DNA from: Candidatus Woesearchaeota archaeon
Lineage (GTDB): Archaea; Nanobdellota; Nanobdellia; Woesearchaeales; DSVV01
Length of the DNA: 64,000 bases
Reading direction: 5' to 3'
Assembly: GCA_016214075.1 (NCBI GenBank)
Contig: JACRPI010000005.1
Coordinates: 2,662-66,661, forward strand
Shown piece by piece: positions 9,967 to 27,402 of this stretch. Position numbers and translations under genes: made by a program. How positions within the stretch are numbered: the stretch's first letter is position 1; the number at the start of each line of letters is the position of its first letter. The notes under the pieces were generated by a model. The model ran no database searches and had not been told where the DNA came from. It was given only the letters and a program-made list of their open reading frames with translations.

Positions 9967-9995
9967 TGAGATGCAATTTTTATTGACCAGAGGCA

Positions 9996-10865: not shown

Positions 10866-10928
10866 ATAAGTCTATTTTGGAATATTGAAATATTTAAGCT
10901 TTTGGATTTGTTCAACTTATTAGAAAAT

Positions 10929-11717
10929 CTACTTCTTGATCTTAACATTCCCTGCAGGCAGCATCCGTATAATTTCATCAATCGTTCCTACTTTAAACTG
11001 CGAACGAAGCGTTTTTGCGAGATCGCTTGGTTTTTGTTCTCCTTGTACAATTTCGACAAAATGTTCTGCGTGCGCTTTGATCGCGGCGTAAGGTCCTGCG
11101 ATAATCCTTCCTTGTTGAACACCAAACGCAAATCGCATGTCATGATCAATATAATGCATTTTTCCTGTGATGACAAACGCGCCGCGTTCAACATATTCTC
11201 CTGCTTTTGCGGTTTTGGTGACTTGTTCTGGAGTGACCCAGCCAACTTTGACGTTGACAAAGCCAAGTTTCCATGCCCTGCTGTATAGCGCAGTCGCAGT
11301 CGCGGTTTCGTTTATCGTGCGTTCAGAAGGTTCTTTTCCTTCAGATTTAATGACAAAGAAGGGGCTTCCTTGTAAATCCGTGTGAAATATGAGATCTTTT
11401 GGAGCAGTGTGTTTCTTGATAACAAGTTCGTTGGTGATTGCGTCTCTGCCGCCGATCACTAGAAAACCATCAGAAGAGTAAAACCAGTGAAATTTTTCAT
11501 ACCATTCTTTTTTTGGGACGTTTTGGACAGCTGTTTTGTGCGCTTCTACTTTTTGTTCTACTTTATGTTGTTCGTGGAGCGCTGTTTGGAGTTTTTGTTT
11601 GCTGATCTCGAGTGCTTTTTTTGCGCCTTCGAGTTTTTTCTTTGCTTTTTTCGCTTTGTCAAAGTAGATGCCAGCGTTTTCGTGAATAGTTTTCGTGAAG
11701 TTGAGGGAAATTTGCAT
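10929..11717 (-). CDS. NFACT-R (DUF814) RNA-binding protein with N-terminal coiled coil (short Rqc2/NEMF/FbpA-family homolog)
   Basis: DLIFHTDLQGSPFFVIK matches the DUF814 core (lwfHa.d.pGShvvl). Lys/Glu-rich coiled-coil N-terminus. Confidence 0.65.
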   Translation of the reverse strand: MQISLNFTKTIHENAGIYFDKAKKAKKKLEGAKKALEISKQKLQTALHEQHKVEQKVEAHKTAVQNVPKKEWYEKFHWFYSSDGFLVIGGRDAITNELVIKKHTAPKDLIFHTDLQGSPFFVIKSEGKEPSERTINETATATALYSRAWKLGFVNVKVGWVTPEQVTKTAKAGEYVERGAFVITGKMHYIDHDMRFAFGVQQGRIIAGPYAAIKAHAEHFVEIVQGEQKPSDLAKTLRSQFKVGTIDEIIRMLPAGNVKIKK

Positions 11718-11737
11718 GAGTAATTTCCATCTTCTTT

Positions 11738-11747
11738 CCTTTATATA
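11738..11747 (+). promoter_or_regulatory. TATA-box-like element (ctttatataatt) about 25 nt upstream of the GC-rich structured island
   Basis: Archaeal TATA consensus-like tttatata; spacing predicts a transcription start near 11768. Confidence 0.4.
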
Positions 11748-11764
11748 ATTAGTGAAAAAGTCTC

Positions 11765-11874
11765 ATCCCGCCGTAGGCGCCGACGCGACGGGGGAAGGCC
11801 CCTCGGGGTGTCGCGTAGGACAAAATTCGAAGAATTTTGTCCGTAGGCCGCCTGCTGCGGCGGGATGGCAAAGT
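11765..11874 (+). ncRNA. Candidate structured ncRNA (~110 nt, GC-rich island) with a 10-bp closing stem and at least two internal hairpins
   Basis: catcccgccg...cggcgggatg perfect terminal pairing. Internal gcgac-[gggg aagg cccc tc gggg]-gtcgc and a perfect ggacaaaattc-gaa-gaattttgtcc hairpin. Local GC far above the ~38% background, followed by a T-rich tract. Confidence 0.4.
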
Positions 11875-11905
11875 ATTAATAACTAAAAGAATTATTTTAT
11901 CCAAC

Positions 11906-12211
11906 ATGGCCAAAGATTACAAAAAAAAACATCAATCGCAAATCGAATCGCGAATTCGTCATCTCTTTAACGAAGCGCATGAAGTGCGAATTTCAGATAC
12001 ATCTTCCGCGTCGAGATATGTTTTTCTCGCGAGAAAGCTTGCGGCAAAGGCAAAAGTTCGAATTCCAAGAGAACTTAAAAGACAGTTCTGCAAAGAGTGT
12101 AATACATTCTTCATCCCAGGAAAGAATTACACAGTGAGAACAACAGGGAAAACAATCAGCTATACTTGTAAAGTTTGCAAGAAAATCACGAGAATAGGAT
12201 ATAAAAAATAA
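11906..12211 (+). CDS. rnp4: RNase P protein component 4 (Rpp21/Rpr2 family)
   Basis: Start taken at MAKDYKKK. ASRYVFLARKLAAKAKVRIPRELKRQFCKECNTFFIPGKNYTVRTT...CKVCKKITR is the Rpp21 signature with a CxxC...CxxC zinc ribbon. Confidence 0.8.
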   Translation: MAKDYKKKHQSQIESRIRHLFNEAHEVRISDTSSASRYVFLARKLAAKAKVRIPRELKRQFCKECNTFFIPGKNYTVRTTGKTISYTCKVCKKITRIGYKK

Positions 12212-12418
12212 ATATCATCTTTCTCAAGCCTTCAGCCCCCTGGCAGCCCGTATCTTAAACATTTCGAAATTCTATCTTTAACTTATTTATGCATATTATA
12301 AACACAAACAGAATTTCGTAATGTGTTAAGAACCACCGCATAAGATTTTGAAAGGTGGTTCTAAACAAAATCGAGAATTGGTATACTCACATTCAATAAG
12401 AGTTCAAGAAAAAAGAAT

Positions 12419-12613
12419 CTATGGTTTGAACATATATTTGAACTCGTTTCGTTTGCCTGTATTTTTGTATTTTACTAATTGACTTTTTCTGAGTTTTTTC
12501 AAACTCATCGTGACTGAGCCAATAGAAACATCAATGCTTTCGCTGATCTGTTTAGAGGTGAACCATTTGTTCTTATTCTCCTTCAAAAAGTTGTAAACTT
12601 CCTGTTGTCCCAT
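12419..12613 (-). CDS. Small winged-helix DNA-binding protein (putative transcriptional regulator)
   Basis: 64 aa; WFTSKQISESIDVSIGSVTMSLKKLRKSQLV is HTH-like. Confidence 0.4.
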   Translation of the reverse strand: MGQQEVYNFLKENKNKWFTSKQISESIDVSIGSVTMSLKKLRKSQLVKYKNTGKRNEFKYMFKP

Positions 12614-12690
12614 ACAGGTACTAGTAATCCAAAGTACTATATAAGTCTTTGGGTAGTTTATTTATAAATGACCCCTCCTTATAAACGCGG

Positions 12691-13341
12691 CTAACCACTG
12701 CCAAAAAGCACAATTTTGAGCACAAGAAGTCCTATCCCAAGGCAAACCATGCCGCCCCAGACAAAGTAATTCCATTTGAAGATTTTCGCGCCATCAAAGT
12801 TCATGAAAGGAATCATATTGAAGATTCCAAGCCAGCTGTTAATCAAAAAACCATATTTTGCGGTTGCGAGCACAAAAGGATGAAGAAATAATGCAGAAAT
12901 CAAAAGAAAAAATAATGCGAAAATATAATTTGTAAGTGGACCGACAGCAGAGATAATTCCATTCTGTCGCGGCGTAATGTGCGGCCCATAAATCATGACA
13001 GCGCCGGGCGCGGCGAATAAGAAGCCCATAAACGAAGAAAACACTGCAAACAATAACATCATATTATCCGCGCGAAATTCTGCCCAGCAATGATAATACT
13101 GCGCGACAAGTTTGTGCATGAGTTCATGCAAAAGAAAGCCAGTTCCAACAGTTGTTGCGGCAATAATAAAAATCAATCCCGTTCCGAGACCGAAAGAAAA
13201 GCCATTCAATAAAATAGTAAACGCAAGACTCACGAAGAACCATGCTTTCAAGAGTTCATGGATTTCAACATCAGAAGTCCTAATTCCCCATATTTTCTTT
13301 TGATGCGGCGCTTGTGCGAAGTACATTGTTCTCTTTCTCAT
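12691..13341 (-). CDS. Site-2-protease-like membrane zinc metalloprotease (M50 family)
   Basis: HELMHK (HExxH) in a TM helix plus downstream NMIPFMNFDG (NxxPxxxxDG), both S2P hallmarks. Multiple TM segments. Confidence 0.65.
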   Translation of the reverse strand: MRKRTMYFAQAPHQKKIWGIRTSDVEIHELLKAWFFVSLAFTILLNGFSFGLGTGLIFIIAATTVGTGFLLHELMHKLVAQYYHCWAEFRADNMMLLFAVFSSFMGFLFAAPGAVMIYGPHITPRQNGIISAVGPLTNYIFALFFLLISALFLHPFVLATAKYGFLINSWLGIFNMIPFMNFDGAKIFKWNYFVWGGMVCLGIGLLVLKIVLFGSG

Positions 13342-13358
13342 GTCAGTCTATTTAAAAG

Positions 13359-13781
13359 TTACTCAAACACAAGAGAATCTCCAATAGCAATCTCCTTTTT
13401 CGCAACAAAGCCCGCGTTCACTTCCAACGCATAGAGTGCAGGTTTTGAGTAATATTTCTCACAATCAGCAACAACACACGGTTCAAAATTCTCCTTAATA
13501 TCAACAATAGTACCAGTACTCTCAACAAAAATAATATCAAGTGGAATCTTTGTATTTTTCATCCAAAACACGCGCTGCTTTTCTTCAGAAAAAACAAACA
13601 ACATGCCAGAATCAGCGGCAAGTTCTGTTCGATACATCAAGCCGATTGCTTGCTCATCAATCGAATCAGCAATCTCAATAATAATAGGAATTTCACTTGT
13701 TACTGTTTTAATGATAACAACATCTTGTGAAGCACAGCTAAGTAAGAAAAAGAAGCAAATGAAGACAAATATTTTTTTCAT
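13359..13781 (-). CDS. DUF192-domain lipoprotein
   Basis: Signal/lipobox FFFLLSCAS; GLMYRTELAADSGMLFVF matches the DUF192 core. Confidence 0.65.
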   Translation of the reverse strand: MKKIFVFICFFFLLSCASQDVVIIKTVTSEIPIIIEIADSIDEQAIGLMYRTELAADSGMLFVFSEEKQRVFWMKNTKIPLDIIFVESTGTIVDIKENFEPCVVADCEKYYSKPALYALEVNAGFVAKKEIAIGDSLVFE

Positions 13782-13914
13782 TACACAACTTGAGGGGTTG
13801 CAGTTCTTATGCTTTACGTTTTCATTCTGTAAACACGCATCATCTTAACATAAACAATCGCTCCACAAAGTCCACATGCACAATTCATCTCTTTTTTATT
13901 AACTTATTTTTGTC

Positions 13915-14072
13915 AAGAACCACCGATCACCGCTCCCTTCGGTCGCTATAGATAGGTGGCATGATCTCGGTGGTTCTTGAGCATGTTACGAATATAGCAC
14001 CTTCAAAAAAACGAAGGTGGACTTGTCCACTGGTTACTAAACCAGTGGTATATTCGAAACATATTAAAATAT
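13915..14072 (+). repeat. Family-A structured repeat, copy A2
   Basis: Near-identical to 7915-8112 apart from the insertion. A third, partial copy of the aagaaccacc...ggtggttct hairpin lies at about 12338-12378. Confidence 0.6.
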
Positions 14073-14197
14073 ATAAAAAAGCATAGGGATTCAGAAGCGA
14101 TAGGGCAAACCAAAAATGATAAGGCGAATCTAAAAGTAATAAAGCGAATAAAGAAGTGAGACAACAACTTTATATATCTCTGCAGCAAAATAACTGT

Positions 14198-14839
14198 ATG
14201 CAAATCATCTTAATAATTTTCATCATTCTCGCGGCAATAATCACAACCCTCTTGCTCCTATGGAAATTCTTCTTCCTCAGAAATCCAACTCCAAATATTC
14301 CAAAGGAAAACAATCTCGTCATAAGCCCAGCAAACGGAAATATCGCGAGAATATACGAATTCAAGAATGAAAAGCAAGCAAAACCAATAATCGCGGAAAA
14401 AGGTTTCTTTGGGAAAATCCCTTTAATCACAAAAGACGTTGCGAAAGAAGGATATATCATTCTTATCCGTTTGCACGTCTATAATGTTCACTGGCAACGC
14501 GCGCCAATTGCGGGAAAAATTACAGAAACAAAATACATTGAAGGAAAATTTCTCAACGCGGTAAAAGATGTCCAAAACATGCAATGCTTTTTTGAGAATG
14601 AAAGAAACGAAATTATAATAAAAGGCAAGATTACCTGTAAAGTCATTCAGATCGCGGGATATCTCGCGAGAAGAATTGAATGCTTTGTCAAACAAGGCGA
14701 TGCAGTAAACGCAGGAGAAATAATTGGACTTATTAATCTAGGAAGCCAAACAGCGCTTATCGTTCCAAAAGTAAAATTAAAAATTAAAGAAGGAGATATA
14801 GTACACGTAGGAGAAACAGTTATTGGTGAAATGAAATGA
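14198..14839 (+). CDS. psd: Archaetidylserine/phosphatidylserine decarboxylase proenzyme (pyruvoyl-dependent, archaeal short form)
   Basis: N-terminal TM, conserved LGSQT self-cleavage-type motif (LINLGSQTALIVP), about 210 aa. Start taken at MQIILIIF, inside the longer ORF. Confidence 0.75.
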   Translation: MQIILIIFIILAAIITTLLLLWKFFFLRNPTPNIPKENNLVISPANGNIARIYEFKNEKQAKPIIAEKGFFGKIPLITKDVAKEGYIILIRLHVYNVHWQRAPIAGKITETKYIEGKFLNAVKDVQNMQCFFENERNEIIIKGKITCKVIQIAGYLARRIECFVKQGDAVNAGEIIGLINLGSQTALIVPKVKLKIKEGDIVHVGETVIGEMK

Positions 14840-15363
14840 AAATGAGAGATATCATCAAAGTTGCGGATTTCTTTACTATTGGAAACCTTCTTTTTGGTAT
14901 GCTCTGTATATTTTACGCAATAAATAGCAAATTCATTTACGCGGCAATTTTCTTGTTCATCGCGATGATTTTTGATTTCCTTGATGGTAAAGTCGCGCGA
15001 ATAAGCAAAAAGATAACTGATCAAGGAAGACATTTTGGAAAAGAATTGGATTCATTGTCCGATGTGGTTTCGTTTGGAGTAGCGCCAGCAATTTTTGGGT
15101 ACACACTCGGTCTCCAAGCATGGTGGGAAATTCTTATTCTCCTCTTCTTCACTACAGCGGGAATGTTGCGATTAAGCAGATTTAATATCACAGAAGGTCA
15201 TGGTTATTTTGAAGGGCTTCCTATTACAGTGAACGGCTTTTTATTTCCTATCTTATTTCTTCTCCATCTCAAAACAGCGTATCACATAGAGTATGTATTG
15301 ATCGCGTATGTCTTCATGGGTTTTGCGATGATGAGTTCGAGAAAAGTGAAGAAGGTCATTTAA
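14836..15363 (+). CDS. pssA: CDP-alcohol phosphatidyltransferase (archaetidylserine synthase-like)
   Basis: DFLDGKVAR...G...LDSLSDVVSFG is the CDP-OH phosphatidyltransferase signature. Start overlaps psd by 4 bp. Confidence 0.8.
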   Translation: MKMRDIIKVADFFTIGNLLFGMLCIFYAINSKFIYAAIFLFIAMIFDFLDGKVARISKKITDQGRHFGKELDSLSDVVSFGVAPAIFGYTLGLQAWWEILILLFFTTAGMLRLSRFNITEGHGYFEGLPITVNGFLFPILFLLHLKTAYHIEYVLIAYVFMGFAMMSSRKVKKVI

Positions 15364-15918
15364 ATGAACCCCACCACGCAATTCCTATTAACCGCGTTCT
15401 ACGTCATCATCCCTGCGGCAATCGCAAACATGATGCCTGTTTTTGTAAGAAGCATTAATTTCCTCAACATTCCAATAGACTTCAACAGAAAATGGTATGA
15501 CAATAAGCCAATCTTCGGAAATCACAAAACATATCGCGGATTTTTCTTTGGCATCCTCGCTGCAATAGTCATCACCTCCATCCAAAGTCTTCTCTATCAA
15601 TATCCGTTTTTCCAACAAATCAGTTTTTTTAATTACAATGAAATCTCTTTCTTTACAGTAGGATTTCTTATAGGATTTGGCGTTTTGTTTGGAGATCTTG
15701 TCAAAAGTTTCATCAAAAGAAGAGTCAACGTCAAGCCAGGAGATAGTTTCTTTCCATGGGATCAACTGGATCTAGTTATTGGCGCAATCGTCTTCATTTC
15801 ATTTATCCAAAGAATTCCGTGGAGCATGATCATATTTTACATCATCGTTGGTCCAACACTGCACGTCTTTTTCAATCATTTAGGTTACTGGTTGAAAATT
15901 AGGGAGACGAAGTGGTAA
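15364..15918 (+). CDS. carS: CDP-archaeol synthase (CarS; DUF46 family)
   Basis: Polytopic protein with GNHKTYRGFFFG (the KTwEG-type CarS motif), 1 bp after the pssA stop. Confidence 0.75.
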   Translation: MNPTTQFLLTAFYVIIPAAIANMMPVFVRSINFLNIPIDFNRKWYDNKPIFGNHKTYRGFFFGILAAIVITSIQSLLYQYPFFQQISFFNYNEISFFTVGFLIGFGVLFGDLVKSFIKRRVNVKPGDSFFPWDQLDLVIGAIVFISFIQRIPWSMIIFYIIVGPTLHVFFNHLGYWLKIRETKW

Positions 15919-15922
15919 TTTA

Positions 15923-17125
15923 CTAAACTGCACACAACTCAGGAAACAACTTCTTATTCTCAACAAGCGCGGAAATTCCAGGCAAAAGAGTTCCCTGTAA
16001 TAACTCAAGAGAAGCGCCGCCACCAGTAGAAACAAGACTCATGTGATGGCTAAAACCAAAATGTTCCACAGCAGCTGCGCTATCGCCGCCGCCAATAATT
16101 TTGACAGCGGAAGACGCGGCGACCATGCCTGCGATATATTTTGTGCCGTGTCCAAATTTTTCAATTTCATACGCGCCAACAGGTCCAGCCCAGACAATCG
16201 TTGCGGCATGCTTCAGTGTTTCCGTATATCGTCGTAGTGTTTCAGGACCCAAATCAATTGCCATCCAATCAAAAGGAATCGCGTCAACAGAAACTACTTT
16301 GATAGAAGCGTCTGCGCCAAATTTGTCAGCCACAACAACATCAACAGGAAGCAAAAATCGTTCATCTTTTTCTTTCAAAAGTTCCGTTGCGAGAGGAAGT
16401 GATTCTTCGTCAAACGCGGATGCGCCAATATTTTTGCCAGCTGCTTTCAGAAATGTGTTTGCTAATTTCCCGCCAATCAGCAAATGATCAAGATGCGGCA
16501 GTAAATTATGAATCACGCCAATTTTGTCTGCTTTTGCGCCGCCGATAATCGTGACAAATGGTTTTCGCGCGTGCTTCACAAGTGTTCCTAATCCTTCAAG
16601 TTCTTTTTGCAAAACAAAACCAGAACAGGCAGGAATAAACTGCGCAATTTGCGTGACAGACGCGTTTGCTCTATGGCAAACACCGAACGCGTCCTGCACA
16701 AAAAAATCTGCGAGAGTAGCAAGCTGCCGAGCAAAATCATTATTATTCTCTCCTTCTTCTTTGTAGAAACGAACATTCTCGAGCATAAGCACATCGCCTG
16801 GCTTCATAGAATAAACTTCTTTTTTAACTGCGTCGCCGATGCATTCATCCAACTTCTTAATATACATTCCAAGAAGTTGACTCAGGCGGTGCGCAATCCC
16901 GTCTGTCTGAAGTTTTAGTTCTCGTCCTTTTGGTCTGCCGATATGCGTCAATAAGATGATCATTGCGCCTTGTTGCCTGAGATATTTGATGGTCGGCAAT
17001 GTTTCACGAATCCGTTTATCATTAGTCACATCGCCGTGCTCATTCATCGGCACATTAAAGTCGACTCTCACGAGAACTCGTTTCTGTTGAAAATCGCAGT
17101 CGTAAAGTGTTCGAAAGTTGTACAA
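15923..17125 (-). CDS. pgk: Phosphoglycerate kinase
   Basis: 400 aa; RVDFNVP, hinge and C-terminal nucleotide-binding motifs typical of PGK. Confidence 0.9.
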   Translation of the reverse strand: MYNFRTLYDCDFQQKRVLVRVDFNVPMNEHGDVTNDKRIRETLPTIKYLRQQGAMIILLTHIGRPKGRELKLQTDGIAHRLSQLLGMYIKKLDECIGDAVKKEVYSMKPGDVLMLENVRFYKEEGENNNDFARQLATLADFFVQDAFGVCHRANASVTQIAQFIPACSGFVLQKELEGLGTLVKHARKPFVTIIGGAKADKIGVIHNLLPHLDHLLIGGKLANTFLKAAGKNIGASAFDEESLPLATELLKEKDERFLLPVDVVVADKFGADASIKVVSVDAIPFDWMAIDLGPETLRRYTETLKHAATIVWAGPVGAYEIEKFGHGTKYIAGMVAASSAVKIIGGGDSAAAVEHFGFSHHMSLVSTGGGASLELLQGTLLPGISALVENKKLFPELCAV

Positions 17126-17282
17126 AACTCATCCCTCAAGAAGATCATACAAAGTGTGATGTTTTTAAAGGTTGTGAAAGCATACTTGTAATGCGTAACT
17201 ACTCTAAAGTACTAACAAAACCAAAAACTATATAAATAAGTGCCTTCACTACTATTGCTAAGTAACACATTAGGGGACGATG

Positions 17283-17555
17283 ATGACAGAGACGACGACA
17301 CAAGAAAAAGCACCAATTCCAGCAGCAGATATTGCTATGATTGTGCAAAACGCGGTGAAGGAAAAAGTTCCTCAAAATGCGGTTATTATTGAGGCAAAAC
17401 CTCTTCTCGCTCGTGATTATGTTGATCCAGTTGATGAGCAATACAAGCTCGAGAGAAAGAACAAAATAGGAACTATAGAGCACAGAGAATCCGCTGAAGG
17501 AATCGGATCCTTACATGCGTTTTTCCTAAGCGCTGGCGACATGCCAGAACTATAG
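17283..17555 (+). CDS. Small hypothetical protein
   Basis: 90 aa ORF preceded by aggggacg (RBS-like), in an otherwise gene-free gap. Confidence 0.3.
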   Translation: MTETTTQEKAPIPAADIAMIVQNAVKEKVPQNAVIIEAKPLLARDYVDPVDEQYKLERKNKIGTIEHRESAEGIGSLHAFFLSAGDMPEL

Positions 17556-17735
17556 TGAACGCACCAAATTATCGTAATAAAAATAGTGCGTTCACTATTC
17601 CGCAGACGCAAATAAGTTACGATAATTTATTGCGTCTACCATATAATCATACTCATCCCAGAGGTGGAGCAAGGCACAAGGATTTTACTCGCATCATCCC
17701 TCCGTGTGTTTATTGCTCCACCGCTTTTTTTTCTC
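17556..17735 (+). other. Hairpin cluster ending in an oligo-T tract (candidate small RNA or terminator cluster)
   Basis: 13-bp inverted repeat tagtgaacgcac...gtgcgttcacta, second hairpin gacgcaaataa...tttattgcgtc, then ggtggagcaa...ttgctccacc followed by TTTTTTTT. Confidence 0.35.
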
Positions 17736-17776
17736 TATCAAAAACTATTTAATATCAGCTTCTTAATTTTTCTATC

Positions 17777-18550
17777 ATGTGGCCATTTGGAAAAAAGACT
17801 GCGAAGGATTATATCGAACAGATTATTCGTCTGGCAAAAGCAGTGAAGGATGATTTTCCAGATGTTTATGAGACTGGAAAAATAAAAAACATTCGAAAGC
17901 TTCTTCTCATTATTCAGCGTTTTAATATAAAACAATTTGCTGCGATTAAAGAAGAAACAGGGTCTGCAAATTTAATGAAGGCGGCGGAAGCAATTGCTCG
18001 TGCGGCTGATGAAGCACTCATGGATATAGAGAATCAATACAACTTCACGAAAGCAGAAACTCTTGTGCAAAAAATTATTGAGTTAGAAGCGTATATTGCG
18101 AACAATTTTGAAACAGAATTGCGCTTTGCCCCATCAAAAGAGTTAGGGAAAATCTTGAAATATTCTCCGCAAGATGCAATCGCGAAAGGATATCTCTTTC
18201 GTGGGTTGTCAGATGCAGACTATCAGAAGGTACTTAAAGGGGTAGGCATAACCGCGAAAAAACCCGACGGAAAGGTTTCTGTTCTGGACCATATTCTTAA
18301 TCCAGCGAATGATCCAAACACGCAATTCATCTCTCTTACTGCTGATGTTGACACTGCTCGACATTTTGGAAGGCCAGTCGCAGTGAACGTCGCAAAAGTA
18401 AAAGGTCATCTCATGCCTCCTGACGAAATTCGCCGTGCAACTGGACGAGATACAAGGGTAGAAAGATTACGAAAAAAGAATGTGGAATTTTTGCTAGCGC
18501 CAACAAAAACAAGCGTTGCGGAAATCCCTGCTGATGCAGTAGTAAGATAG
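17777..18550 (+). CDS. Hypothetical protein with C-terminal ADP-ribosyltransferase-like motifs (putative ART-fold toxin-like domain, tentative)
   Basis: C-terminal GYLFRGLSDADY (aromatic-Arg), FISLTAD (S-x-T) and NVEFLLAP (Glu then h-LL-P, like the ARTT/EXE region of C3-type ARTs), in R-S-E order and spacing. Confidence 0.35.
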   Translation: MWPFGKKTAKDYIEQIIRLAKAVKDDFPDVYETGKIKNIRKLLLIIQRFNIKQFAAIKEETGSANLMKAAEAIARAADEALMDIENQYNFTKAETLVQKIIELEAYIANNFETELRFAPSKELGKILKYSPQDAIAKGYLFRGLSDADYQKVLKGVGITAKKPDGKVSVLDHILNPANDPNTQFISLTADVDTARHFGRPVAVNVAKVKGHLMPPDEIRRATGRDTRVERLRKKNVEFLLAPTKTSVAEIPADAVVR

Positions 18551-18559
18551 TAAGAAAAA

Positions 18560-19129
18560 TTAAGCAACACGTTTTAGTTTTCTGAAAATATGCTCTCTAT
18601 ACAAATACGCAGGATTTTGATGAGCAGCACCTTCTATGCGTTCAGGAATAGGTACAAATGGAATAACATTCGAAGTACCTAAATAATCTCTTTGCATGTG
18701 TAATTCTCGACGAACTTCACCAAGGATGACTCCAAGCATGTTTCTTCCTCTTCCGTCTCTTCCGACACCCCAGTAATTGTCTTTAGGAGTTGCTTCGATA
18801 ATTCTTTCATCTCCTGTTGATAAGAGTAGATCACCAAGATCAGGGTACTGCGCAAATTTCTCCAACACGACCCATCGCATATAATCATCTTTGACAGTGT
18901 CCCAATCTCGTCGAATTGGATAGTTTCTATCGCGACCAAGATCTGCTGCAAAATGTGGTGTTCTAGCCCCCCGTATTTTTTCTTGATAACGAGAATTATG
19001 CGAAAATTTTTGTGCCTGAAAAAAATGTTCAGATGTAGGCCAGACTTTATCATCTATTGTTAATTCATAAAGTGCAAAATTAGAAAAACACCCAAATGCA
19101 TCATCGACGTGATAAAATCGAATTGCCAT
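18560..19129 (-). CDS. NADAR-domain protein (YbiA-like N-glycosidase / ADP-ribose-processing hydrolase)
   Basis: FYHVDDAFGCFSNF...WPTSEHFFQAQKF...LLLSTGDERIIEATPKDNYWGVGRDGRGRNMLGVILGEVR matches the NADAR/DUF1768 signature almost motif for motif. Confidence 0.85.
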   Translation of the reverse strand: MAIRFYHVDDAFGCFSNFALYELTIDDKVWPTSEHFFQAQKFSHNSRYQEKIRGARTPHFAADLGRDRNYPIRRDWDTVKDDYMRWVVLEKFAQYPDLGDLLLSTGDERIIEATPKDNYWGVGRDGRGRNMLGVILGEVRRELHMQRDYLGTSNVIPFVPIPERIEGAAHQNPAYLYREHIFRKLKRVA

Positions 19130-19566
19130 TAGTTTCCCTCGAGTTCCAAAAGAAGGATATTAATTCTTTCATCTAAAGCAATTCTCTCTTCACTTCCAAC
19201 TGTTTTGGGAATATAAGTTCTACTCATATTATAAGCATGTTGCGCCTTGTCTTTAAGAGAAAGCTCTTGTGTTTGCTGGTGCTGTGCTGCGTAACATTGG
19301 CCGAGAAGGAGTTGCAAGTCATATCGTCGTTCATAAACTTCAGCTGCTTGTTCTCCATGAGCTATCGCATTTTCAAGAGCAGCTGTATCTGAGTTTTGTC
19401 TATACAGACCAAAATAAGATAATGCTAAACCATACTGAATGTTAAAGGATGGGGCAGGCGGTAAGCCTTCAGAAATACAAGGAGTAAAAGATGATAGCGC
19501 AGCAGTATAATCTCCAGAATCAAGAGCCCTAAACCCTGCGTCAATAAGCGAAGTAATATCTGCCAT
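19129..19566 (-). CDS. Helical-repeat (TPR-like) hypothetical protein, co-operonic with the NADAR gene
   Basis: Stop overlaps the NADAR start by 1 bp. Start taken at MADITSLID. Confidence 0.45.
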   Translation of the reverse strand: MADITSLIDAGFRALDSGDYTAALSSFTPCISEGLPPAPSFNIQYGLALSYFGLYRQNSDTAALENAIAHGEQAAEVYERRYDLQLLLGQCYAAQHQQTQELSLKDKAQHAYNMSRTYIPKTVGSEERIALDERINILLLELEGN

Positions 19567-19696
19567 GAGGGATCTTAGAAACAAAACTCTATTTATAAAT
19601 GTTGTCATAATTTATCATTAAGGAGGGGTGACATAAAACAAACACGTAGTCTCGAATTCAGTAACCCTTATTAATTCCATCCCCTCAAGAATTGTC

Positions 19697-20221
19697 ATGG
19701 TCATCCATCTCATTCAGCAAGTACTAGGGATAAGCAATCCGTATCATGATTTCACGTCAAACATTACGCGAATTTCTGCCATTCTCTCGTCGATGGAAGA
19801 TAATGCAAAGGCAGCAAATCATGCTGCGGTAAAAGAGAAAACAGATGCAATAAAAAGAATGATTGGCATTCCTGTTGCGAGTAATAGTCAGTGTCTCATT
19901 CATTTAATGCAAAAAAAGACAGACAAGCTGCATGCGCTGCATCAGTCCGGCGAGAAAACGCAGTTGCAGACAATGGAAAAAGACATGCGTCATGCGCTGC
20001 AATATTTAATCAATTATATCGTCCAGATAGGAACAGTTTCTCAGGAATTATCAAGACAAAGTCAAAAGCAAAGAGTTCCTGTCCTTGAGCAGCATATTAA
20101 TCATGCGCGGCATTATGTCATTAAAATGAAAGCACGCTGTCACATTGAGATGAAGGCCTATGATGCGGCAAAAAGGCAGAAACCGCAAGTGCGTCAGGTA
20201 GTCCATAGAAAAGCGGCGTGA
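19697..20221 (+). CDS. Hypothetical protein
   Basis: 174 aa ORF, helical, Q/H-rich; no family recognised. Confidence 0.4.
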   Translation: MVIHLIQQVLGISNPYHDFTSNITRISAILSSMEDNAKAANHAAVKEKTDAIKRMIGIPVASNSQCLIHLMQKKTDKLHALHQSGEKTQLQTMEKDMRHALQYLINYIVQIGTVSQELSRQSQKQRVPVLEQHINHARHYVIKMKARCHIEMKAYDAAKRQKPQVRQVVHRKAA

Positions 20222-20286
20222 GTAATAGTCTGATTTTCTTATTCTCTTTCATTTCATTCTCATTATTTAAGTATGTTTTCTCTCTA

Positions 20287-20440
20287 AAATTAAATAATAA
20301 AAGAATGGAGATTCAAAAGGACTGTAAGGCGAATAAAATGCAGAGGCAGCTATTTATTTCAGCCTACAAGAAAAAACACGCACAAGCAAAGCAAAATGTC
20401 AGGGGGACCCAATGCTCCTTAAGGAGCATTGGGGTATTAT
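20287..20440 (+). repeat. Family-B repeat, full copy B1
   Basis: aaattaaataataaaagaatggagattcaaaaggactgtaaggcgaat...acacgcacaagcaaagcaaaaTGTCAGGGGGACCC-AATGCTCCttaaGGAGCATT-GGGGTATTAT. Confidence 0.6.
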
Positions 20441-20542
20441 GGAAGTAAAGACAATAAAAAATTATCTAAAACATATCAAACGAAAAAGAGAGCATAGACC
20501 AAGCTTTCAATATCTTTAAATAGAACAGATGTAGAGATAAAA

Positions 20543-22258
20543 GTGATAATCGTGACAAATATAGTAACGCTGAAAAAAGCAACAAAAGAGTCCTTGCATA
20601 TTGTTGGAGAAAAAGCAATACGTCTTGCAGTACTTTCGCAAAAATTCTCCGTTCCTCCCACATTCATCATCACAGCCACAGCGTTTGATCAATTTCTCAC
20701 AAACAATCACATAAAAAAACAGGCAAAAGAAATGCTTGAGAAAATAGAAGAAGAGAATGAGACAAAAATACAAGAAGCAAGCGACGCGATAAAACTACTC
20801 ATCCTCAACGCGCCATTACCAGAAGAATTACGAGAAGAAGTTCATGACGCGTATTATGCGTTGAACATTGACGAAACACATTCTTTAAACGATCTGATGG
20901 AAACAGGCGAAGAACCAATAGTGGTTCTACGACCTTCTCCAATCCATGATGAACAAGCAAATCTACACGAATCTATGTTAGGAGTTCAAGGGATGCAAAA
21001 CATAGAAAATGCGATTCTCAATGTCTGGGCATCTTTTTACAATCCAGAAGCCATATCTGTAATGATTAAAAGTAAAATAGAAGAACAGAAAAAAGAAGAA
21101 CCCAAACAAACACAAAAAGAAACGCAGTTTGCGATCATCGTCCAAAAAATGATAGACAGCCAAGCGTCAGGAGTAATTCACACGAGTTACAAAATGAATA
21201 AAGAAGAAGTGCTTATTCTCGGCTGTAAAGGATTAGGAACAGCGTTAAATTCAGGATTAATCAGTCTAGACAAATATTTCATCACAAAAAAATCATTGAA
21301 CATTGCGTCGATTGAAGTAGGCAAACAGCCATTCATGTTAGAACGAGATTTTGACACCAATAAAATTGCGAAAATTTACATGCAAGAAGAATACAGTAAA
21401 AAGCAGAAAATTACAGACAGGCATATTGGCGAGCTCACGTTGCTCGGAAACACAATAGAACAAATATTTGGCAAGCCGCAGGAAGTGGATTTCGCGATTT
21501 ACAAAGAAGTAATTTCTATTCTTGGCGCGAGAGACGCGGAATGGTACAAGGAGAGTCTGCAAAAAGCAGCGCAGCCACAAGAAGCAGCGCCGCGGTGGAA
21601 AGAGCCAACGCCAGAAGAAGTAGAACAAAAAGAAAAAGAAATATCAACTTCTATTACACACGAGCTTGAGCAGGATACGTTAGTGGTCAATGCATTAAGT
21701 GGAACGCAGCATATTTTAGGCGAATCGCCAGAAGCAGTACATCTTGTTTATCCAGAAGAGAGCATGGTCATCCAGGGAAACACTTCAAATGATCCAAATG
21801 ACATTAACGCGGTAATTCTGGGCATTGATTTCAATGCCGCGTTGAATGAAGTTACGCAGACAGCAGGCACAGAAATCGCGGCAGTGTCAGCGGCGATGAA
21901 TCCCGCGCAATCCCCCTCCCAAACAGCAGCTGTTATTCTTGAAAAGCAGATTCCTTCCATAATTACTGAAGCAGTAGAACAGGAAGCTGCGGAAGAAAAG
22001 CGAGAGGAAGAAGAAATAATCGCAGAACAAGTGCGAACAGTCCAAAAAAAAGAATTGTCTGCGTTTGAAAAAGCATCAGGAAATCTCATTATTCATTGTT
22101 TTAAAGAAGTAAAAGAAAAAATTCCAAAAGAACAGTGGGCAGCGTCTCCAGAGCTCCGCCACCTTGCGGTTCTTGCGCAGAATTTCTCACAAAAAAATGT
22201 CGCGCCAACGCCAGCGCAGGTGAAATTTGCGTTGGATGCGATGGAAAAGGTCAAATAA
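20543..22258 (+). CDS. PEP/pyruvate-binding (PPDK_N-like ATP-grasp) domain protein with low-complexity C-terminal region
   Basis: N-terminal similarity to the nucleotide-binding domain of PEP synthase/PPDK (IVGEKAIRLAVL...). No GGRTSHAA swivel-His motif. E/K/Q-rich tail. Confidence 0.6.
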   Translation: MIIVTNIVTLKKATKESLHIVGEKAIRLAVLSQKFSVPPTFIITATAFDQFLTNNHIKKQAKEMLEKIEEENETKIQEASDAIKLLILNAPLPEELREEVHDAYYALNIDETHSLNDLMETGEEPIVVLRPSPIHDEQANLHESMLGVQGMQNIENAILNVWASFYNPEAISVMIKSKIEEQKKEEPKQTQKETQFAIIVQKMIDSQASGVIHTSYKMNKEEVLILGCKGLGTALNSGLISLDKYFITKKSLNIASIEVGKQPFMLERDFDTNKIAKIYMQEEYSKKQKITDRHIGELTLLGNTIEQIFGKPQEVDFAIYKEVISILGARDAEWYKESLQKAAQPQEAAPRWKEPTPEEVEQKEKEISTSITHELEQDTLVVNALSGTQHILGESPEAVHLVYPEESMVIQGNTSNDPNDINAVILGIDFNAALNEVTQTAGTEIAAVSAAMNPAQSPSQTAAVILEKQIPSIITEAVEQEAAEEKREEEEIIAEQVRTVQKKELSAFEKASGNLIIHCFKEVKEKIPKEQWAASPELRHLAVLAQNFSQKNVAPTPAQVKFALDAMEKVK

Positions 22259-23778: not shown

Positions 23779-26700
23779 ATGAACACAAAAGCAACAAAAT
23801 TTATTCTCTGGTTTGATGAGTTAGGTATTGAAGACGTCCCAATCGTGGGCGGCAAAAACGCGTCGTTGGGTGAAATGTATAGAATTCTTGTTCCGCAAGG
23901 AGTACGGATCCCCAATGGCTTTGCGGTAACCGCGTACGCGTATCATTATCTTGTGGAGAAAGCAGGAATTAAAGCAAGTATCCAGCAAATTTTGAAAGGA
24001 TTAGATACACAGAATGTTTCTGATCTTGCGGAACGAGGGCATAAAGTACGAGAGATTATCAGAACCGCGAAGTTTCCAGAAGAGCTTGCGGTGGAAATCA
24101 TAGCGGCATATCAAAAGATGTGCAAGCTATATGGGAGCAGAACAGATGTCGCGGTGCGATCGAGCGCGACAGCAGAAGATTTGCCAGACGCGAGTTTTGC
24201 GGGCCAGCAGGAGACCTATCTGAATATTCGTGGAGACAGTGACTTGATTAACGCGTGTAAGAATTGTTTTGCGTCTCTCTTCACCAATCGTGCGATTTCC
24301 TACAGAGTGGACAAGGGCTTTGACCATTTTTCTATTGGATTAAGTATTGGTGTCCAGAAGATGGTGCGTAGCGATAAGGCGTGTTCTGGCGTTATGTTTT
24401 CAATTGATACAGAAACAGGATTTCAAAACGCGGTCTTCGTTACAGCGGCGTATGGTCTTGGAGAAACCGTCGTTCAGGGCGCAGTCAACCCAGATGAGTA
24501 TTATGTGTTTAAGCCAACATTAAAAACAGGGCATAAATCAATTTTATCAAAACGTGTTGGCGAGAAAAAAATAATGATGGTGTATAGTGATAAAGTGCAG
24601 CAGACAACAAAGACTGTCGCGGTTTCAGAAGACCAGCGAAAGAAATTCGTGCTCACTGATGATGAAATTTTAACCCTCTCAAAATGGGCGTGCATTATTG
24701 AAGATCATTATTCGCGAAAAGCAGGAAAGTTCAAACCAATGGATATGGAATGGGCAAAAGATGGCGTCACAAACCAATTATTTATTGTGCAGGCTCGTCC
24801 AGAAACAGTGCATTCACAACAGGATTTGACGCAGTTAAAAGAGTATGGGCTCGCGAAAAAAGGAAAAGTAGTGGTTATTGGAAAAGCGGTTGGCGAAAAG
24901 ATTGGTCAAGGAGCGGCGGCAATAATCAAGGATGTCAAGGATATTTCGCAGTTCAAGAAAGGGCAAGTTTTGGTCACAGAAATGACAGATCCGGATTGGG
25001 AACCAATTATGAAGATTGCGAGTGCGATTGTCACGAATAGTGGGGGGAGGACGTGTTTTCCAGCAGGCACTAAAATTTTAACAAATAAAGGATTTAGAAA
25101 TATTGAAGAGATTTATGACAATCATGAGGAGATTGAAGTTCCTTCGTTAAACAGGAAGACGCTCAAAGTAGAGTGGAAGCCGGTTATTGCTTCCATGAAA
25201 AGAAGAGCAGAAGTTATTGAAATTGAAACATCATTGACAGGGAGAATGAAGGGCAACACATTGCGGCTTACGCCAAATCATAAAATGCTCACCTTTAATG
25301 ATGCTCAATTAGTTGATAAAGAAATTCAACAGATGCTTCATGAACAGCAAATGCTTTTGTGTGCGCAAAAAATTCCAGCGCTTACAGAATCAACTGAAAA
25401 ACAAAAAGCACTAGCATACCTTTTAGGTGCAATAAGCACAGATGGGAGCATTTATACCTCTAGAACACATGGTGAAGTACAGTTTATTCAGAAAGAAACA
25501 GAAGAAAAAAAAGAATTTATTGAATATGTAAATACATGCTTAAATGAAACATACAATAAAGAGTTTAGCGTGTCAGTCAAAAAAACAAGTAGTGGAGAGA
25601 TTAGAGGAAAACCAGCGATTGGCAATGCGAATGCGTATCGCTGTTATAGCAAAGAGGTTGCGTATACGCTGCTTCGGGAACAGCAGACAATAACGCAAAC
25701 GCTCCTGAAAGCGGATGAATCTCTTATTTATTCTTTCCTTGCGGGAGTTATTGATGGCGATGGGTCATTAAGCGCAGAAAAAAATAGAATTAATATTTAT
25801 TGTTCTAAGGAATATCTGTTTCAGGCAATAATCGTGGGCTGCCTTAGAATTGGAATTGTTCCGCAAGCAACAGTAAACAGAACAATTTGGAACATCCAGA
25901 TTGTTGAAAAAGTAGATGAAATTTGTAAATGGACAAAAAGAGTTAAAGGGAAAGAAGAAAGAAAAAGAATAGGAACAAGATTTTTTAGTGCAAGGCAGCT
26001 TTTAGGAGGAAGCAAGTACATTGGACATTTCTCCACAAGTTTAGGTAAAAATCTTTTATTAGATGCAAAAAAAATAGATGCTGCAAAAAAGTTTCTTTCT
26101 CCAGAGTATGCGCAAAGAATTGAACATGTTTTACTATCAGATACAAGAATGCAGAGAGTTTCATTCGCTCATGATTGTGGTGAGCAGGATGTGTACAATA
26201 TTACTGTCGCGGATAATCATAACTATGTTGTCTTTACAGAGAGATATACTCCAGTTGTAGTCAATAACTGTCACGCGGCGATTGTCAGCAGAGAGTTAGG
26301 AGTCCCATGTGTCGTCGGAACAAATAATGGGACAGAAAAAATAAAGCAAGGTCAAAAAGTGACAGTAGACTGTTCGAGTGGCGATGAAGCAATCGTTTAT
26401 GATGGATTGTTGAAAATAAATGTTAAGGTCACGGATCTGAAAAAAATTCCAGAAACAAAAACAAAAATCATGATGAATCTTGCGGCGCCTGAGCAGGCGT
26501 TTGAGAAATCATTTTTGCCAAATAGCGGCGTGGGATTAGCGCGACAAGAGTTTATTATAAGTTCGTACATTAAAGTGCATCCAAAAGCGTTAATTCATTT
26601 TGATGAATTGAAAGATAAAAAGCTCAAAGAGGAGATTGAAGAAATAACATACAATTACAAAGATAAAAAGGAATTTTTTATTGACAAACTCAGCCAGGGC

Positions 26701-27402
26701 ATCGCGACAATTGGTGCAGCGTTTTATCCAAAAGATGTGATTGTCAGGATGAGTGACTTCAAGAGCAATGAGTATGCGAATCTTATTGGGGGTCATTTGT
26801 ATGAACCAAAGGAAGATAACCCAATGATTGGCTGGCGTGGCGCGTCTCGGTATTATACAGATTATCAGGAAGGATTTGAGTTAGAATGTAAAGCAATGAG
26901 AAGAGTCAGAGAAACAATTGGCTTGACCAATGTCAAAGTCATGATTCCGTTCTGTCGAACAATTGAAGAAGGGAAAAAAGTATTGGACGTCATGAAAAAA
27001 CAAGGACTGGTACAGGGCAAGAATGGCTTGCAGGTCTATGTGATGTGCGAAATCCCCTCTAATGTCATCTTGGCAGAAGAATTCCTCAGCATTTTTGATG
27101 GATTCTCGATTGGTTCAAATGATCTCACGCAACTCACGTTAGGAGTTGATCGTGATTCAGCGTTAGTCGCGCATGTCTATAACGAGAGCAACGAAGCGGT
27201 CAAGCTTCTTGTTCAGCGTGTTGTCCATGTCGCGAATAAAATGAAGAAGCACATGGGTTTCTGTGGGCAGGCGCCAAGCGATAATATCGAATTCGCGAAG
27301 TTCCTCGTCGAGTGTGGAATTGAGTCCATGTCTTTGAATCCAGATTCTGTGGTGAAGACAACGTTGGCAGTTGCGGATGTGGAGAGGAAAGTGAAGAGGT
27401 AA
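23779..27402 (+). CDS. ppsA: Phosphoenolpyruvate synthase (pyruvate, water dikinase) interrupted by a 405-aa LAGLIDADG intein
   Basis: Canonical PpsA N-terminus (WFDELGIEDVPIVGGKNASLGEMY), phospho-His motif GGRT|...|CHAAIVSRELGVPCVVG split by the insert, C-terminal PEP-binding TIM barrel. Confidence 0.9.
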   Translation: MNTKATKFILWFDELGIEDVPIVGGKNASLGEMYRILVPQGVRIPNGFAVTAYAYHYLVEKAGIKASIQQILKGLDTQNVSDLAERGHKVREIIRTAKFPEELAVEIIAAYQKMCKLYGSRTDVAVRSSATAEDLPDASFAGQQETYLNIRGDSDLINACKNCFASLFTNRAISYRVDKGFDHFSIGLSIGVQKMVRSDKACSGVMFSIDTETGFQNAVFVTAAYGLGETVVQGAVNPDEYYVFKPTLKTGHKSILSKRVGEKKIMMVYSDKVQQTTKTVAVSEDQRKKFVLTDDEILTLSKWACIIEDHYSRKAGKFKPMDMEWAKDGVTNQLFIVQARPETVHSQQDLTQLKEYGLAKKGKVVVIGKAVGEKIGQGAAAIIKDVKDISQFKKGQVLVTEMTDPDWEPIMKIASAIVTNSGGRTCFPAGTKILTNKGFRNIEEIYDNHEEIEVPSLNRKTLKVEWKPVIASMKRRAEVIEIETSLTGRMKGNTLRLTPNHKMLTFNDAQLVDKEIQQMLHEQQMLLCAQKIPALTESTEKQKALAYLLGAISTDGSIYTSRTHGEVQFIQKETEEKKEFIEYVNTCLNETYNKEFSVSVKKTSSGEIRGKPAIGNANAYRCYSKEVAYTLLREQQTITQTLLKADESLIYSFLAGVIDGDGSLSAEKNRINIYCSKEYLFQAIIVGCLRIGIVPQATVNRTIWNIQIVEKVDEICKWTKRVKGKEERKRIGTRFFSARQLLGGSKYIGHFSTSLGKNLLLDAKKIDAAKKFLSPEYAQRIEHVLLSDTRMQRVSFAHDCGEQDVYNITVADNHNYVVFTERYTPVVVNNCHAAIVSRELGVPCVVGTNNGTEKIKQGQKVTVDCSSGDEAIVYDGLLKINVKVTDLKKIPETKTKIMMNLAAPEQAFEKSFLPNSGVGLARQEFIISSYIKVHPKALIHFDELKDKKLKEEIEEITYNYKDKKEFFIDKLSQGIATIGAAFYPKDVIVRMSDFKSNEYANLIGGHLYEPKEDNPMIGWRGASRYYTDYQEGFELECKAMRRVRETIGLTNVKVMIPFCRTIEEGKKVLDVMKKQGLVQGKNGLQVYVMCEIPSNVILAEEFLSIFDGFSIGSNDLTQLTLGVDRDSALVAHVYNESNEAVKLLVQRVVHVANKMKKHMGFCGQAPSDNIEFAKFLVECGIESMSLNPDSVVKTTLAVADVERKVKR
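25054..26268 (+). mobile_element. Intein in ppsA (Cys1 ... terminal Asn, +1 Cys) with LAGLIDADG homing-endonuclease domain
   Basis: Begins CFPAGTKILT right after GGRT and ends VVVNN before CHAAIV. Two dodecapeptide motifs LAYLLGAISTDGSI and FLAGVIDGDGSL. Confidence 0.85.

Follow-up and report, generated by a model that had tools for sequence, protein, structure and literature searches.

A modular, hairpin-bearing intergenic repeat family of an uncultured archaeal lineage, with putative roles at transcript 3′ ends and in small RNAs

Six intergenic copies of a repeat, here called family B, lie in a 64,000-nucleotide stretch of contig JACRPI010000005.1 (positions 2,662 to 66,661, the window), whose gene content is archaeal-chromosomal (GatE, PGK, AlaRS and an intein-bearing PEP synthase, at ~39% G+C). 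Together with their relatives they amount to ~100 copies over three species at 77-90% nucleotide identity. The family is a lineage-specific, vertically inherited, modular intergenic repeat. Conservation at each locus, together with the lack of recent copies and of a transposase, speaks against an active or recently dead transposon and argues for a function of each copy. Our leading interpretation, held tentatively and somewhat short of even confidence, is that family B comprises transcript 3′-end modules and small-RNA units of ~110-130 nt. In the 3′ module, the presumed functional heart, UGUCAGGGGGA is invariant and probably single-stranded; a hairpin of 8 or 10 bp with perfect pairing follows, and then the U-rich tail GUWUUWUKGA.

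The distribution of the family is narrow. A scan with the pattern GTCAGGGGGACCCAN{6,30}TGGGGTNTT, covering one genome per species for 185,579 species, yields 27 loci, all in one metagenome-assembled genome, CAYLMH01 ('uncultured Methanosarcinales archaeon'). In syntenic blocks this genome shares 86-90% identity with the window, and therefore belongs to a sister species (species 2) and is not the window's own. A scan of metagenomes gives 57 loci, ~50 of them from the JGI metagenome Ga0247727 and one from Ga0209541, which belong to a third relative (species 3), with an identity of 77-89%; six loci, rich in GC, match by chance. Viral contigs scanned for the motif contain no match. In the collections searched, the family is confined to one uncultured Methanosarcinales genus, where it reaches six copies per 64 kb in the window and, over 1.6 Mb of contigs from species 3, at least 64 copies matching the exact pattern, a density of at least one copy per 10-25 kb. 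Rfam 15 gives no match at gathering thresholds and, at E ≤ 5, four unrelated weak matches, of which rli32 (21.4 bits, gathering 100) lies partly over copy B6 at 58956-59123; a tRNA/tmRNA scan of the window returns nothing. No description of the family, and no mention of the identifiers of the sample or assembly, occurs in the literature searched; in the first-pass annotation of the window the family had likewise not been recognised as a known element.

That annotation had placed six copies in the window, and all six are present with aligning blocks. When up to one mismatch is allowed, the window contains six occurrences of the motif GGGGGACCC, where 1.13 would be expected; none of 100 shuffles yields as many. 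A covariance model built from 101 copies and run unfiltered over the window recovers the same six copies only, at 52-84 bits. The next best match stands at 12.6 bits, a ceiling that leaves out palindromic stems matched on the opposite strand. The six copies, a stand-alone 5′ domain and one occurrence of an alternative end, termed module 2, are arranged as follows.

1448-1521, plus strand: B1, short form, ACACGCAC block and 3′ module; covariance-model score 62.9 bits.
13833-13901, plus strand: ACACGCA block followed by module 2 (..CAAAGTCCACATGCACAATTCATCTCTTTTTTATT) with a T6 run; weak covariance-model match at 13822-13855.
14064-14155, plus strand: stand-alone 5′ domain, with AT leader, GGGATTC at 14086 and three A(A/G)GCGAAT units; no 3′ module.
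20286-20443, plus strand: B2, long form; 76.9 bits, covariance-model hit 20365-20442.
42313-42466, plus strand: B3, long form; 68.8 bits, hit 42394-42466.
53751-53912, minus strand: B4, long form; 84.2 bits, hit 53751-53827.
58831-58946, minus strand: B5, doublet member with ACACGCACC block; 78.9 bits, hit 58831-58907.
58913-58999, plus strand: B6, inverted partner of B5, GAATCGCCATACTCCTTTAC-TGTCAGGGGGACCC with a 13-bp hairpin; 52.5 bits.

The four-block layout proposed earlier (AT leader; GGGATTC..AAGGCGAWT; ACACGCACCAG; TGTCAGGGGGA-CCCAT-hairpin-ATGGGGTATTAT) is borne out, at full length in B2, B3 and B4; B1 and B6 consist of the 3′ part alone, and B5 has no leader. B1, flanked by two minus-strand genes, carries two changes in its core (GCCAGAGGGACCCA) and the hairpin CCCATTGC-AGTG-GCAATGGG. 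The leader of B2 (20286-20307) is followed by a 5′ domain starting with GAGATTC at 20308 and holding one AAGGCGAAT box, by ACACGCAC at 20376, the core at 20397-20411, an 11-bp hairpin with loop TTAA at 20408-20433, and the U-rich tail to 20443; a shorter PPDK_N paralogue (20543-22258) lies directly downstream. B3 has its leader at 42313-42334, GGGATTC at 42335, two GGCGATT boxes at 20 nt spacing, ACACGCACC at 42405, the core at 42428-42442, and an 8-bp hairpin with loop GTA at 42439-42457. On the minus strand, the B4 leader spans ~53912-53888, with GGGATTC from 53887, two GGCGAWT boxes, ACACGCACC at 53816 and the hairpin CCCATTACAC-TAAA-GTGTAATGGG. B5 is a body with 3′ module (core GCCCGGGGGACCCA, hairpin CCCATTGCAC-TTGA-GTGCAATGGG) and faces B6 across a 14-nt inverted repeat, GGGTCCCCCGGGCA on the left and TGTCAGGGGGACCC on the right, which is 13/14 complementary at a distance of ~84 nt. 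The head-to-head pair had been named B4/B5; by the order of the earlier list it is B5/B6. The stand-alone 5′ domain at 14064-14155 forms the upstream region of ORF 14156-14839, an arrangement shared by L055 and L011. The leader of this ORF contains three ~20-nt A(A/G)GCGAAT units in the window against one in species 3 (L055), where ATG also takes the place of the window's GTG start codon.

Across the family, the long form begins with a T-rich stretch, the leader aaaaAaTaAAtaAaAAA and GGGATTC-NNN-AGGAC-TGT-AAGGCGATTC, often with a second GGCGAAT box exactly 20 nt on. The middle part comprises a short hairpin (GGCGA/UUGCU or AGCAA/UUGCU) up to CAGCAAC, an A-rich spacer, ACACGCACCAGCAAA and 8-14 variable bases, and the 3′ end reads TGTCAGGGGGA-CCCATTGC(AC)-loop-(GT)GCAATGGG-G-T-W-T-T-W-T-K-G-A. 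The leader consensus aaaaAaTaAAtaAaAAA occupies positions -19 to -8 from GGGATTC, as derived from 75 pattern matches, a minority of which are chance matches within coding sequence. GGGATTC and the G-run are separated by 75-119 nt, or ~190 nt where another small repeat is nested. The 3′ module itself has the layout TGTCAGGGGGACCCA-(8 or 10 bp hairpin)-TGGGGUWUUWU. In 101 copies, C.G.GGGACCCA and GGG are invariant, while TGTCA, TT.C, G.AAT and G-T..T are conserved to at least 90%. The tail carries U at +2, +4, +5 and +7 in 75-96% of copies; a T4 run within 25 nt past the hairpin is found in 45%, and A4 within 30 nt upstream of it in 65%.

Further architectures are built from the same parts. Short forms start near the ACACGCACC block with ragged 5′ limits, and in a rearranged long form the ATTCGCYCAGCAA box stands 3′ rather than 5′ of ACACGCACC. 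An inverted doublet consists of an ordinary module and, facing it from 84-102 nt away, a module with GAATCGCC..CTTTAYTGTCAGGGGGACCC ahead of it; the 14-nt inverted repeat TGTCAGGGGGACCC is common to both. Six such doublets occur in three species (window B5/B6, L007, L008, L031, L041 and L045). The pair at 58836-59003, which had been read as an insertion or recombination at the hairpin, is instead one case of this recurrent third architecture, found at six loci with a common GAATCGCC..CTTTAYTGTCAGGGGGACCC partner. Stand-alone 5′ domains precede protein genes at 14064-14155 and at ~8 other places in related loci. Module 2 (..CAGYAAAGTCC..ACAATTCATCC-TTTTATT) occurs ~12 times, usually with a 5′ domain 20-35 nt later.

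The hairpin is maintained by compensatory change, as had been proposed: 99.6% of cells are paired, and 41 cells are changed on both sides against 3.3 ± 1.7 in shuffles. The observed covariation score is reached by 0 of 500 shuffles, and slid controls are 22-50% paired. The six hairpin sequences given earlier are correct; the stem of B2 starts with CCCAAT and not with CCCAT. The hairpin does vary in each of the six copies; over ~100 copies it is less free, with two dominant forms, CCCATTGC-NNNA-GCAATGGG (8 bp) and CCCATTGCAC-NNNN-GTGCAATGGG (10 bp). The stem measures 8 bp in 41 and 10 bp in 40 copies, and the loop 4 nt in 78 and 3 nt in 17. The otherwise invariant CCC/GGG pairs become TCC/GGA in L018. 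While the base is fixed, the tip can take up extra sequence (45 nt in L017, 95 nt in L048), and in L042 the stem reaches 16 bp.

Of 950 stem pairs, 937 are Watson-Crick, six G.U and seven A.C, with no wobble signature of the sense strand. This strand-symmetric pattern is as expected for a palindrome acting at the DNA level or for a hairpin used in both directions of transcription. Together with the loop sequences, this pattern qualifies the earlier description of a selected RNA or single-stranded DNA structure; compensatory change alone does not prove RNA. The loops behave differently in the two classes. In the 8-bp class they are strongly strand-specific when counted against their reverse complements (CGCA 12:0, AGCA 7:0, GAA 9:1), whereas the 10-bp class includes reverse-complement pairs (TAAA 8 and TTTA 9; TCAA and TTGA), and a loop flip from TTGA to TCAA separates one orthologue pair. 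The loop CAAA stands at 5:0.

Several other kinds of content were considered and set aside. The global RNA structure of the long form offers, besides the 3′ hairpin, a weak, non-covarying CACGCACC/GGGGG helix and the short GGCGA/UUGCU hairpin; where CACGCACCAGCA varies, most changes would still allow it to pair, by wobble, with UGU..GGGGG. The idea of a small conserved ORF behind GGGGTATTATG fails, with an ATG that is not conserved and frames that close at once, and ATGTCAGGGGGACCC as coding sequence fails likewise, with the ATG changed to CTG or TTG in many copies. K-turn, C/D-box and H/ACA motifs do not fit on inspection by eye alone.

The evolutionary behaviour of the copies carries the case for function. 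The closest body matches are positional orthologues across species, not paralogues, and no genome holds near-identical copies; by this pattern the copies are not recent insertions. At least 24 of 33 species-2 modules (≥73%) have a counterpart at the same site in species 3 with the exact 20-base pattern kept, where the neutral expectation for 20 kept bases is 0.72^20, or ~0.001 (~0.1%). Retention so far beyond ~1 in 1000 indicates that the core is constrained at each locus; decaying transposon relics would not keep their cores in this manner. Over 25 orthologue pairs, identity is 66-75% in flanks and body, 100% in GGGGGACCCA, 87% in the tail and 69% in the hairpin interior. With the 15-base motif and hairpin intact at >70% of sites while neutral DNA has diverged by 25-30%, each copy appears to serve the cell.

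Between conserved cores, parts of the repeat are exchanged as a mosaic. The B2 site has three hairpin types in three species (orthologues L011 in species 2 and L068 in species 3), with the body arranged differently in species 3. In the B3 orthologues L027 and L056 the hairpin is CCCATTGCAC..GTGCAATGGG, and B3 has lost TG and the partner CA symmetrically. L069 and L018 differ by a swapped body, with 5′ domain and hairpin kept. At two orthologous sites the hairpin module and module 2, there ending in a T-run (TTTTTT, TTTATT), have been interchanged, in both directions; module 2 at 13833-13901 of the window fills the site of a hairpin module in species 3. Gain and loss are seen as well. The copy at 5026 in L008 is absent from the window; L051 and L024 differ by a clean 88-nt indel directly after the AATCGCTCAGCAACA box; species 3 lacks B4 and has, in the corresponding intergenic region (L040), a short copy of opposite orientation, the two being mutually exclusive; and the B5 module is gone in species 3 (L067), leaving the ACACGC block alone. 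None of the five presence/absence sites shows a convincing target-site duplication, and neither long nor short forms have terminal inverted repeats. Between collinear flanks, species 2 (L008 2070-2261) carries the whole B5/B6 doublet (58835-59039) in inverted orientation, while species 3 has the window orientation; this is the sole inversion seen, and its ends lie outside the repeats. Inversion of the doublet at strain level was also considered, and the only other assembly of the window's genome, the Logan assembly of SRR12113407 (L028/L029), has the same orientation as the window. Its contigs break exactly within the B5 hairpin palindrome, so family-B repeats fragment assemblies of this lineage.

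All copies are intergenic, and many follow genes. In 24 copies a co-oriented ORF of at least 100 aa has its stop within ~140 nt upstream of the G-run (45-90 nt in 17 of the 24); these ORFs are unrelated housekeeping genes (agmatinase, LspA-like, RibH-like, ATP-grasp), with the same pairs in two species. Of 46 long forms, 36 lie behind a co-oriented gene, whose stop they follow after 26-96 nt. In about half of all cases a convergent gene follows 50-80 nt downstream. No transposase, integrase, TnpA/TnpB or recurrent ORF is present in the ~745 kb around the ~100 copies. An all-against-all BLASTP of ORFs from the window and the first 29 loci gives no multi-copy protein, and a crude HUH/Y1 motif screen over all loci is empty. 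The region 5′ of the short forms, considered as the place of a TnpB-like or recurrent ORF, holds unrelated housekeeping genes only.

The copies are also strongly oriented. On species-3 contigs, 46 copies lie on the majority strand against 9 (11/12, 6/6, 5/5 and 4/4 on single contigs), and gene strand fails to account for their orientation. The sense strand has positive AT skew at 53 of 61 loci (87%) and positive GC skew at 46 of 61. Third-codon AT skew is +0.075 in genes co-oriented with the element and -0.12 in opposite genes; since the skew follows the element strand, the asymmetry belongs to the DNA strand and not to transcription. By the usual rules, the sense-bearing strand would be the leading one, identical in sequence to the template of the lagging strand. 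Cumulative GC skew over window positions 1-20000 has a minimum at ~4-18 kb and rises steadily afterwards, which may mark a replication-related turning point. The orientation bias offers a practical marker of replication direction for draft genomes of this lineage.

We postulate that the hairpin, with its fixed base CCCAUU/AAUGGG and free tip, and the U-rich tail would stop or protect an RNA 3′ end, possibly in both directions, and that the invariant 15-mer would be the docking site for one specific factor, protein or RNA, with the UGUCAGGGGGACCCA-hairpin unit as the target of this putative reader. As a short form, the module would close off mRNAs from ordinary genes. Joined to its own promoter-like leader and 5′ domain, as in the long form, it would give rise to a small RNA of ~110-130 nt, with a predicted 5′ end ~10-15 nt into GGGATTCNNNAGGAC, ~25 nt downstream of the AT leader, and predicted 3′ ends 5-12 nt past the hairpin. 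In doublets two such modules face each other, and the same 5′ domain also heads some protein genes. From the sequence features we infer transcription, promoter and terminator activities and a binding factor. A transcript-end role is suggested because the modules sit after stop codons and interchange with a T-run module, because an A-rich stretch, hairpin and U-rich stretch succeed one another and the promoter-like leader is shared with protein genes, and because the hairpin tip accepts insertions as peripheral stems of functional RNAs do; the invariant 15-mer points to the need for a specific reader. In archaea the T-run is the classical signal for termination. The strand-specific loops and the wobble-compatible variation of CACGCACCAGCA also count in favour of this interpretation. 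One of the two earlier proposals, a family of small RNAs that carries its own promoter, stays the best reading of the long copies because the promoter-like leader is conserved at a fixed distance.

A number of observations sit poorly with this transcript-end and small-RNA interpretation. Oligo-T of at least five T is present in module 2, but T5 within 25 nt of the hairpin is found in 15 of 101 hairpin modules (15%). A helix selected purely as RNA would be unusual in having no more G.U than A.C pairs, unless transcripts from both directions make use of the hairpin. Relative to shuffles the body has no extra fold (z = 0.06), and folding is as good on the reverse strand as on the forward one (z -2.5 vs -2.1). 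Orthologue bodies are conserved no better than their flanks, which leaves a 'variable guide' role unsupported. The GGGATTC/GGCGATT/GGCGAAT boxes recur at 20-21 nt intervals and resemble a DNA-face periodicity. Short forms are downstream of a co-oriented gene in 22 cases and not in 23 (n=45, by a crude gene call). The strand bias of 87%, set against 60% of coding bases, exceeds what simple co-transcription predicts.

Several of these points would be natural in a single-stranded DNA element resembling bacterial REP, REPIN or BIME repeats, an explanation that we regard as possible though clearly less probable, ranked second, and not exclusive with the transcript-end model. Here the hairpin and its 5′ tag would be read on the lagging-strand template by a single-copy, domesticated HUH (RAYT-like) or other structure-specific enzyme that maintains and occasionally copies the modules, with RNA effects secondary. 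The density and strictly intergenic position of the copies, the almost perfectly Watson-Crick palindromes with G.U equal to A.C, and the conserved non-palindromic tag directly 5′ of the stem are consistent with it. So are the six inverted doublets, spaced as in REPINs, the BIME-like mosaics, the strand choice (A>T strand 53/61, G>C 46/61, 46:9 within contigs) and the loop flips (TTGA to TCAA) and 200-bp inversion as DNA-level events. Long vertical persistence with rare gain and loss agrees too, the same being reported of REPIN-RAYT systems (10.1101/2022.05.22.493013). Against it, the ~745 kb contain no Y1/HUH-like ORF by the crude motif screen and no multi-copy protein, although a single-copy gene may well lie elsewhere; the conserved unit of ~70-160 nt, with leader and non-palindromic blocks, is far larger than a REP; and near-identical copies as a sign of recent copying are missing. 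The tag is TGTCAGGGGGA, not the GTAG or CGTC of the REP superfamilies (PMC3733652), and a source covering archaea, PMC12306157, gives generic palindromes only.

It is unlikely that the copies are double-stranded DNA sites bound by a transcription factor or by a factor acting at chromosome level, meaning a dimeric or arrayed protein with KOPS/Chi-type polarity or a regulon operator. GGGACCC (GGGWCCC) and the stem are double-stranded palindromes with strand-symmetric mismatches, direct repeats have a 20-21 nt period with a number of A(A/G)GCGAAT units that varies among orthologues, the strand bias is strong and of replication type, and the invariant GGGATTC would fall past the TATA-like box and ahead of the expected start site. 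The strand-asymmetric loops (12:0, 7:0, 9:1) nevertheless speak against such sites; compensatory change preserves pairing, not sequence, and a protein that reads double-stranded sequence would not tolerate stems of free sequence and length or inserts of 45-95 nt. Lower still is the probability of non-autonomous IS200/IS605 elements (PATE/MITE), the other earlier proposal, possibly with a TnpB guide-RNA scaffold whose guide is the flank after GGGGUAUUAU. Such an origin would fit the hairpin ~10 nt from a sharp 3′ boundary with unrelated flank beyond, the promoter-like leader with a ~130-nt scaffold, and the bias to the presumed lagging-strand template, given the leading strand assigned above; a lagging-strand-template bias is reported for IS608/ISDra2 (PMC6006769). 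Subterminal hairpins at either end, on one and the same strand, define such elements, however; here the hairpin is at the 3′ end only, and the 5′ end consists of AT leader and GGGATTC without any palindrome. Neither tnpA nor tnpB was found at or near the ~100 copies, where upstream ORFs are housekeeping genes; five comparisons of occupied and empty sites gave no clear target motif or duplication; and most copies are positionally conserved across species with intact cores. The most improbable of the explanations weighed is that the copies serve site-specific recombination, either as folded hairpins of attC type or as targets of an invertase, with exchange or inversion of the segments that lie between them. 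Conserved flanks around a central stem of variable length recall attC, the 200-bp doublet is inverted in the sister species, orthologous sites have exchanged hairpin types and bodies, and the 5′ end AATAGGGATTC, as we read it, is similar to the 3′ half-site AATGGGGTATT. Yet the copies are scattered among syntenic housekeeping genes without cassette arrays or an adjacent integrase or invertase, and the single inversion ends outside the repeats, with unchanged orientation in SRR12113407. The integron-like and operator explanations account for fewer facts than the transcript-end and REPIN-like ones.

Two further repeats accompany family B. One, highly structured and ~155-190 nt long, lies at 7914-8105 and 13911-14064 of the window and starts TGTCAAGAACCACC..; it has the long-range stems CAAGAACCACCGA/TCGGTGGTTCTTG, GCACCTTC/GAAGGTG and CCACTGG/CCAGTGG and no Rfam match. 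Its copy at 7.9 kb contains an internal insert of ~50 nt. Pieces 93-98% identical are present in the species-3 locus L032, and the repeat's copy at 13.9 kb occupies the exact site of a family-B hairpin module in species 3. The other, smaller repeat (window 7787-7881, L001 ~1900-1990, L026) forms two hairpins with TTCGAA in each loop; in L001 and L026 it is nested in family-B bodies at the same point (AAAATA^TACACGC, TA-flanked), and its stems show compensatory changes. Elsewhere in the window, intein genes with LAGLIDADG domains are found at 23779-27402 and 27775-30297 (PEP synthase and a neighbouring 840-aa ORF). The 3.1-kb segment 44690-47804, which holds a B12-binding radical-SAM gene (44732-46264) and an ORF at 46741-47700, is replaced by ~190 nt in the syntenic species-3 locus L056; the lowest G+C of the window (0.326) falls at 46-48 kb.

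Bacteria offer well-studied examples of structured intergenic repeats in high copy number (REP, BOX, Correia); in archaea such repeats are poorly known. If family B is a transcript-end or factor-binding module, it would add an archaeal 3′-end signal beyond the oligo-T rule and a large small-RNA family; if it is a single-stranded DNA element, REPIN-like systems would extend to archaea. That it constitutes either an archaeal REPIN-RAYT counterpart, or a regulon of more than 100 members in which mRNA 3′ ends and small RNAs share one 15-nt handle plus hairpin and a single dedicated factor, is a conjecture we consider doubtful but worth stating. In either case the modules would be near-uniformly oriented with replication and exchanged among loci as cassettes. 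To our knowledge, no REP-RAYT system has been established in archaea, and we know of no description there of such a counterpart or regulon.

Among known systems, integron attC sites, which work as folded single strands, share the outer half-sites around a central stem of very different lengths and the location at gene 3′ ends, but the neighbours of family B are fixed housekeeping genes, without cassette arrays or integrase. Haloarchaeal PATEs and TnpB (omega/reRNA) scaffolds are alike in the hairpin near one end, in strand bias and in a structured RNA of ~130 nt that would stop at the boundary; family B differs in having no left-end hairpin and no recent transposition, in that no parent insertion sequence with matching ends was found in the ~745 kb around the copies, and in cores conserved in place. 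Intrinsic, bidirectional and oligo-T terminators share the A-rich stretch, stable hairpin and U-rich tail, the position after stop codons and the interchange with a T-run module, yet generic termination needs no invariant 15-nt motif or fixed stem base, and the U-tract of family B is interrupted (UWUUWU). Pneumococcal BOX (boxA-boxB-boxC) and Neisseria Correia/NEMIS elements combine modules in variable combinations and numbers, have promoter and terminator activities and are co-transcribed with neighbours. Family B is likewise modular in variable combinations and numbers, without sequence relation to either; the terminal inverted repeats and TA duplications of Correia elements are absent from its long and short forms. 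REP, BIME and REPIN repeats resemble it as high-copy intergenic palindromes with a tag beside the stem, inverted doublets, mosaics, vertical persistence and 3′-UTR (untranslated region) placement, where REPs stabilise or terminate mRNAs. Family B is distinguished from them as archaeal, 70-160 nt long, with a promoter-like leader, the tag TGTCAGGGGGA and perfect stems, and with no RAYT found in the sampled loci. As a whole, modular, hairpin-bearing, high-copy intergenic repeats with effects on transcripts are a kind known from bacteria; this family is an undescribed, archaeal one. Three things set it apart: the tag is invariant, the long form bears a promoter-like leader, and the copies are oriented near-uniformly.

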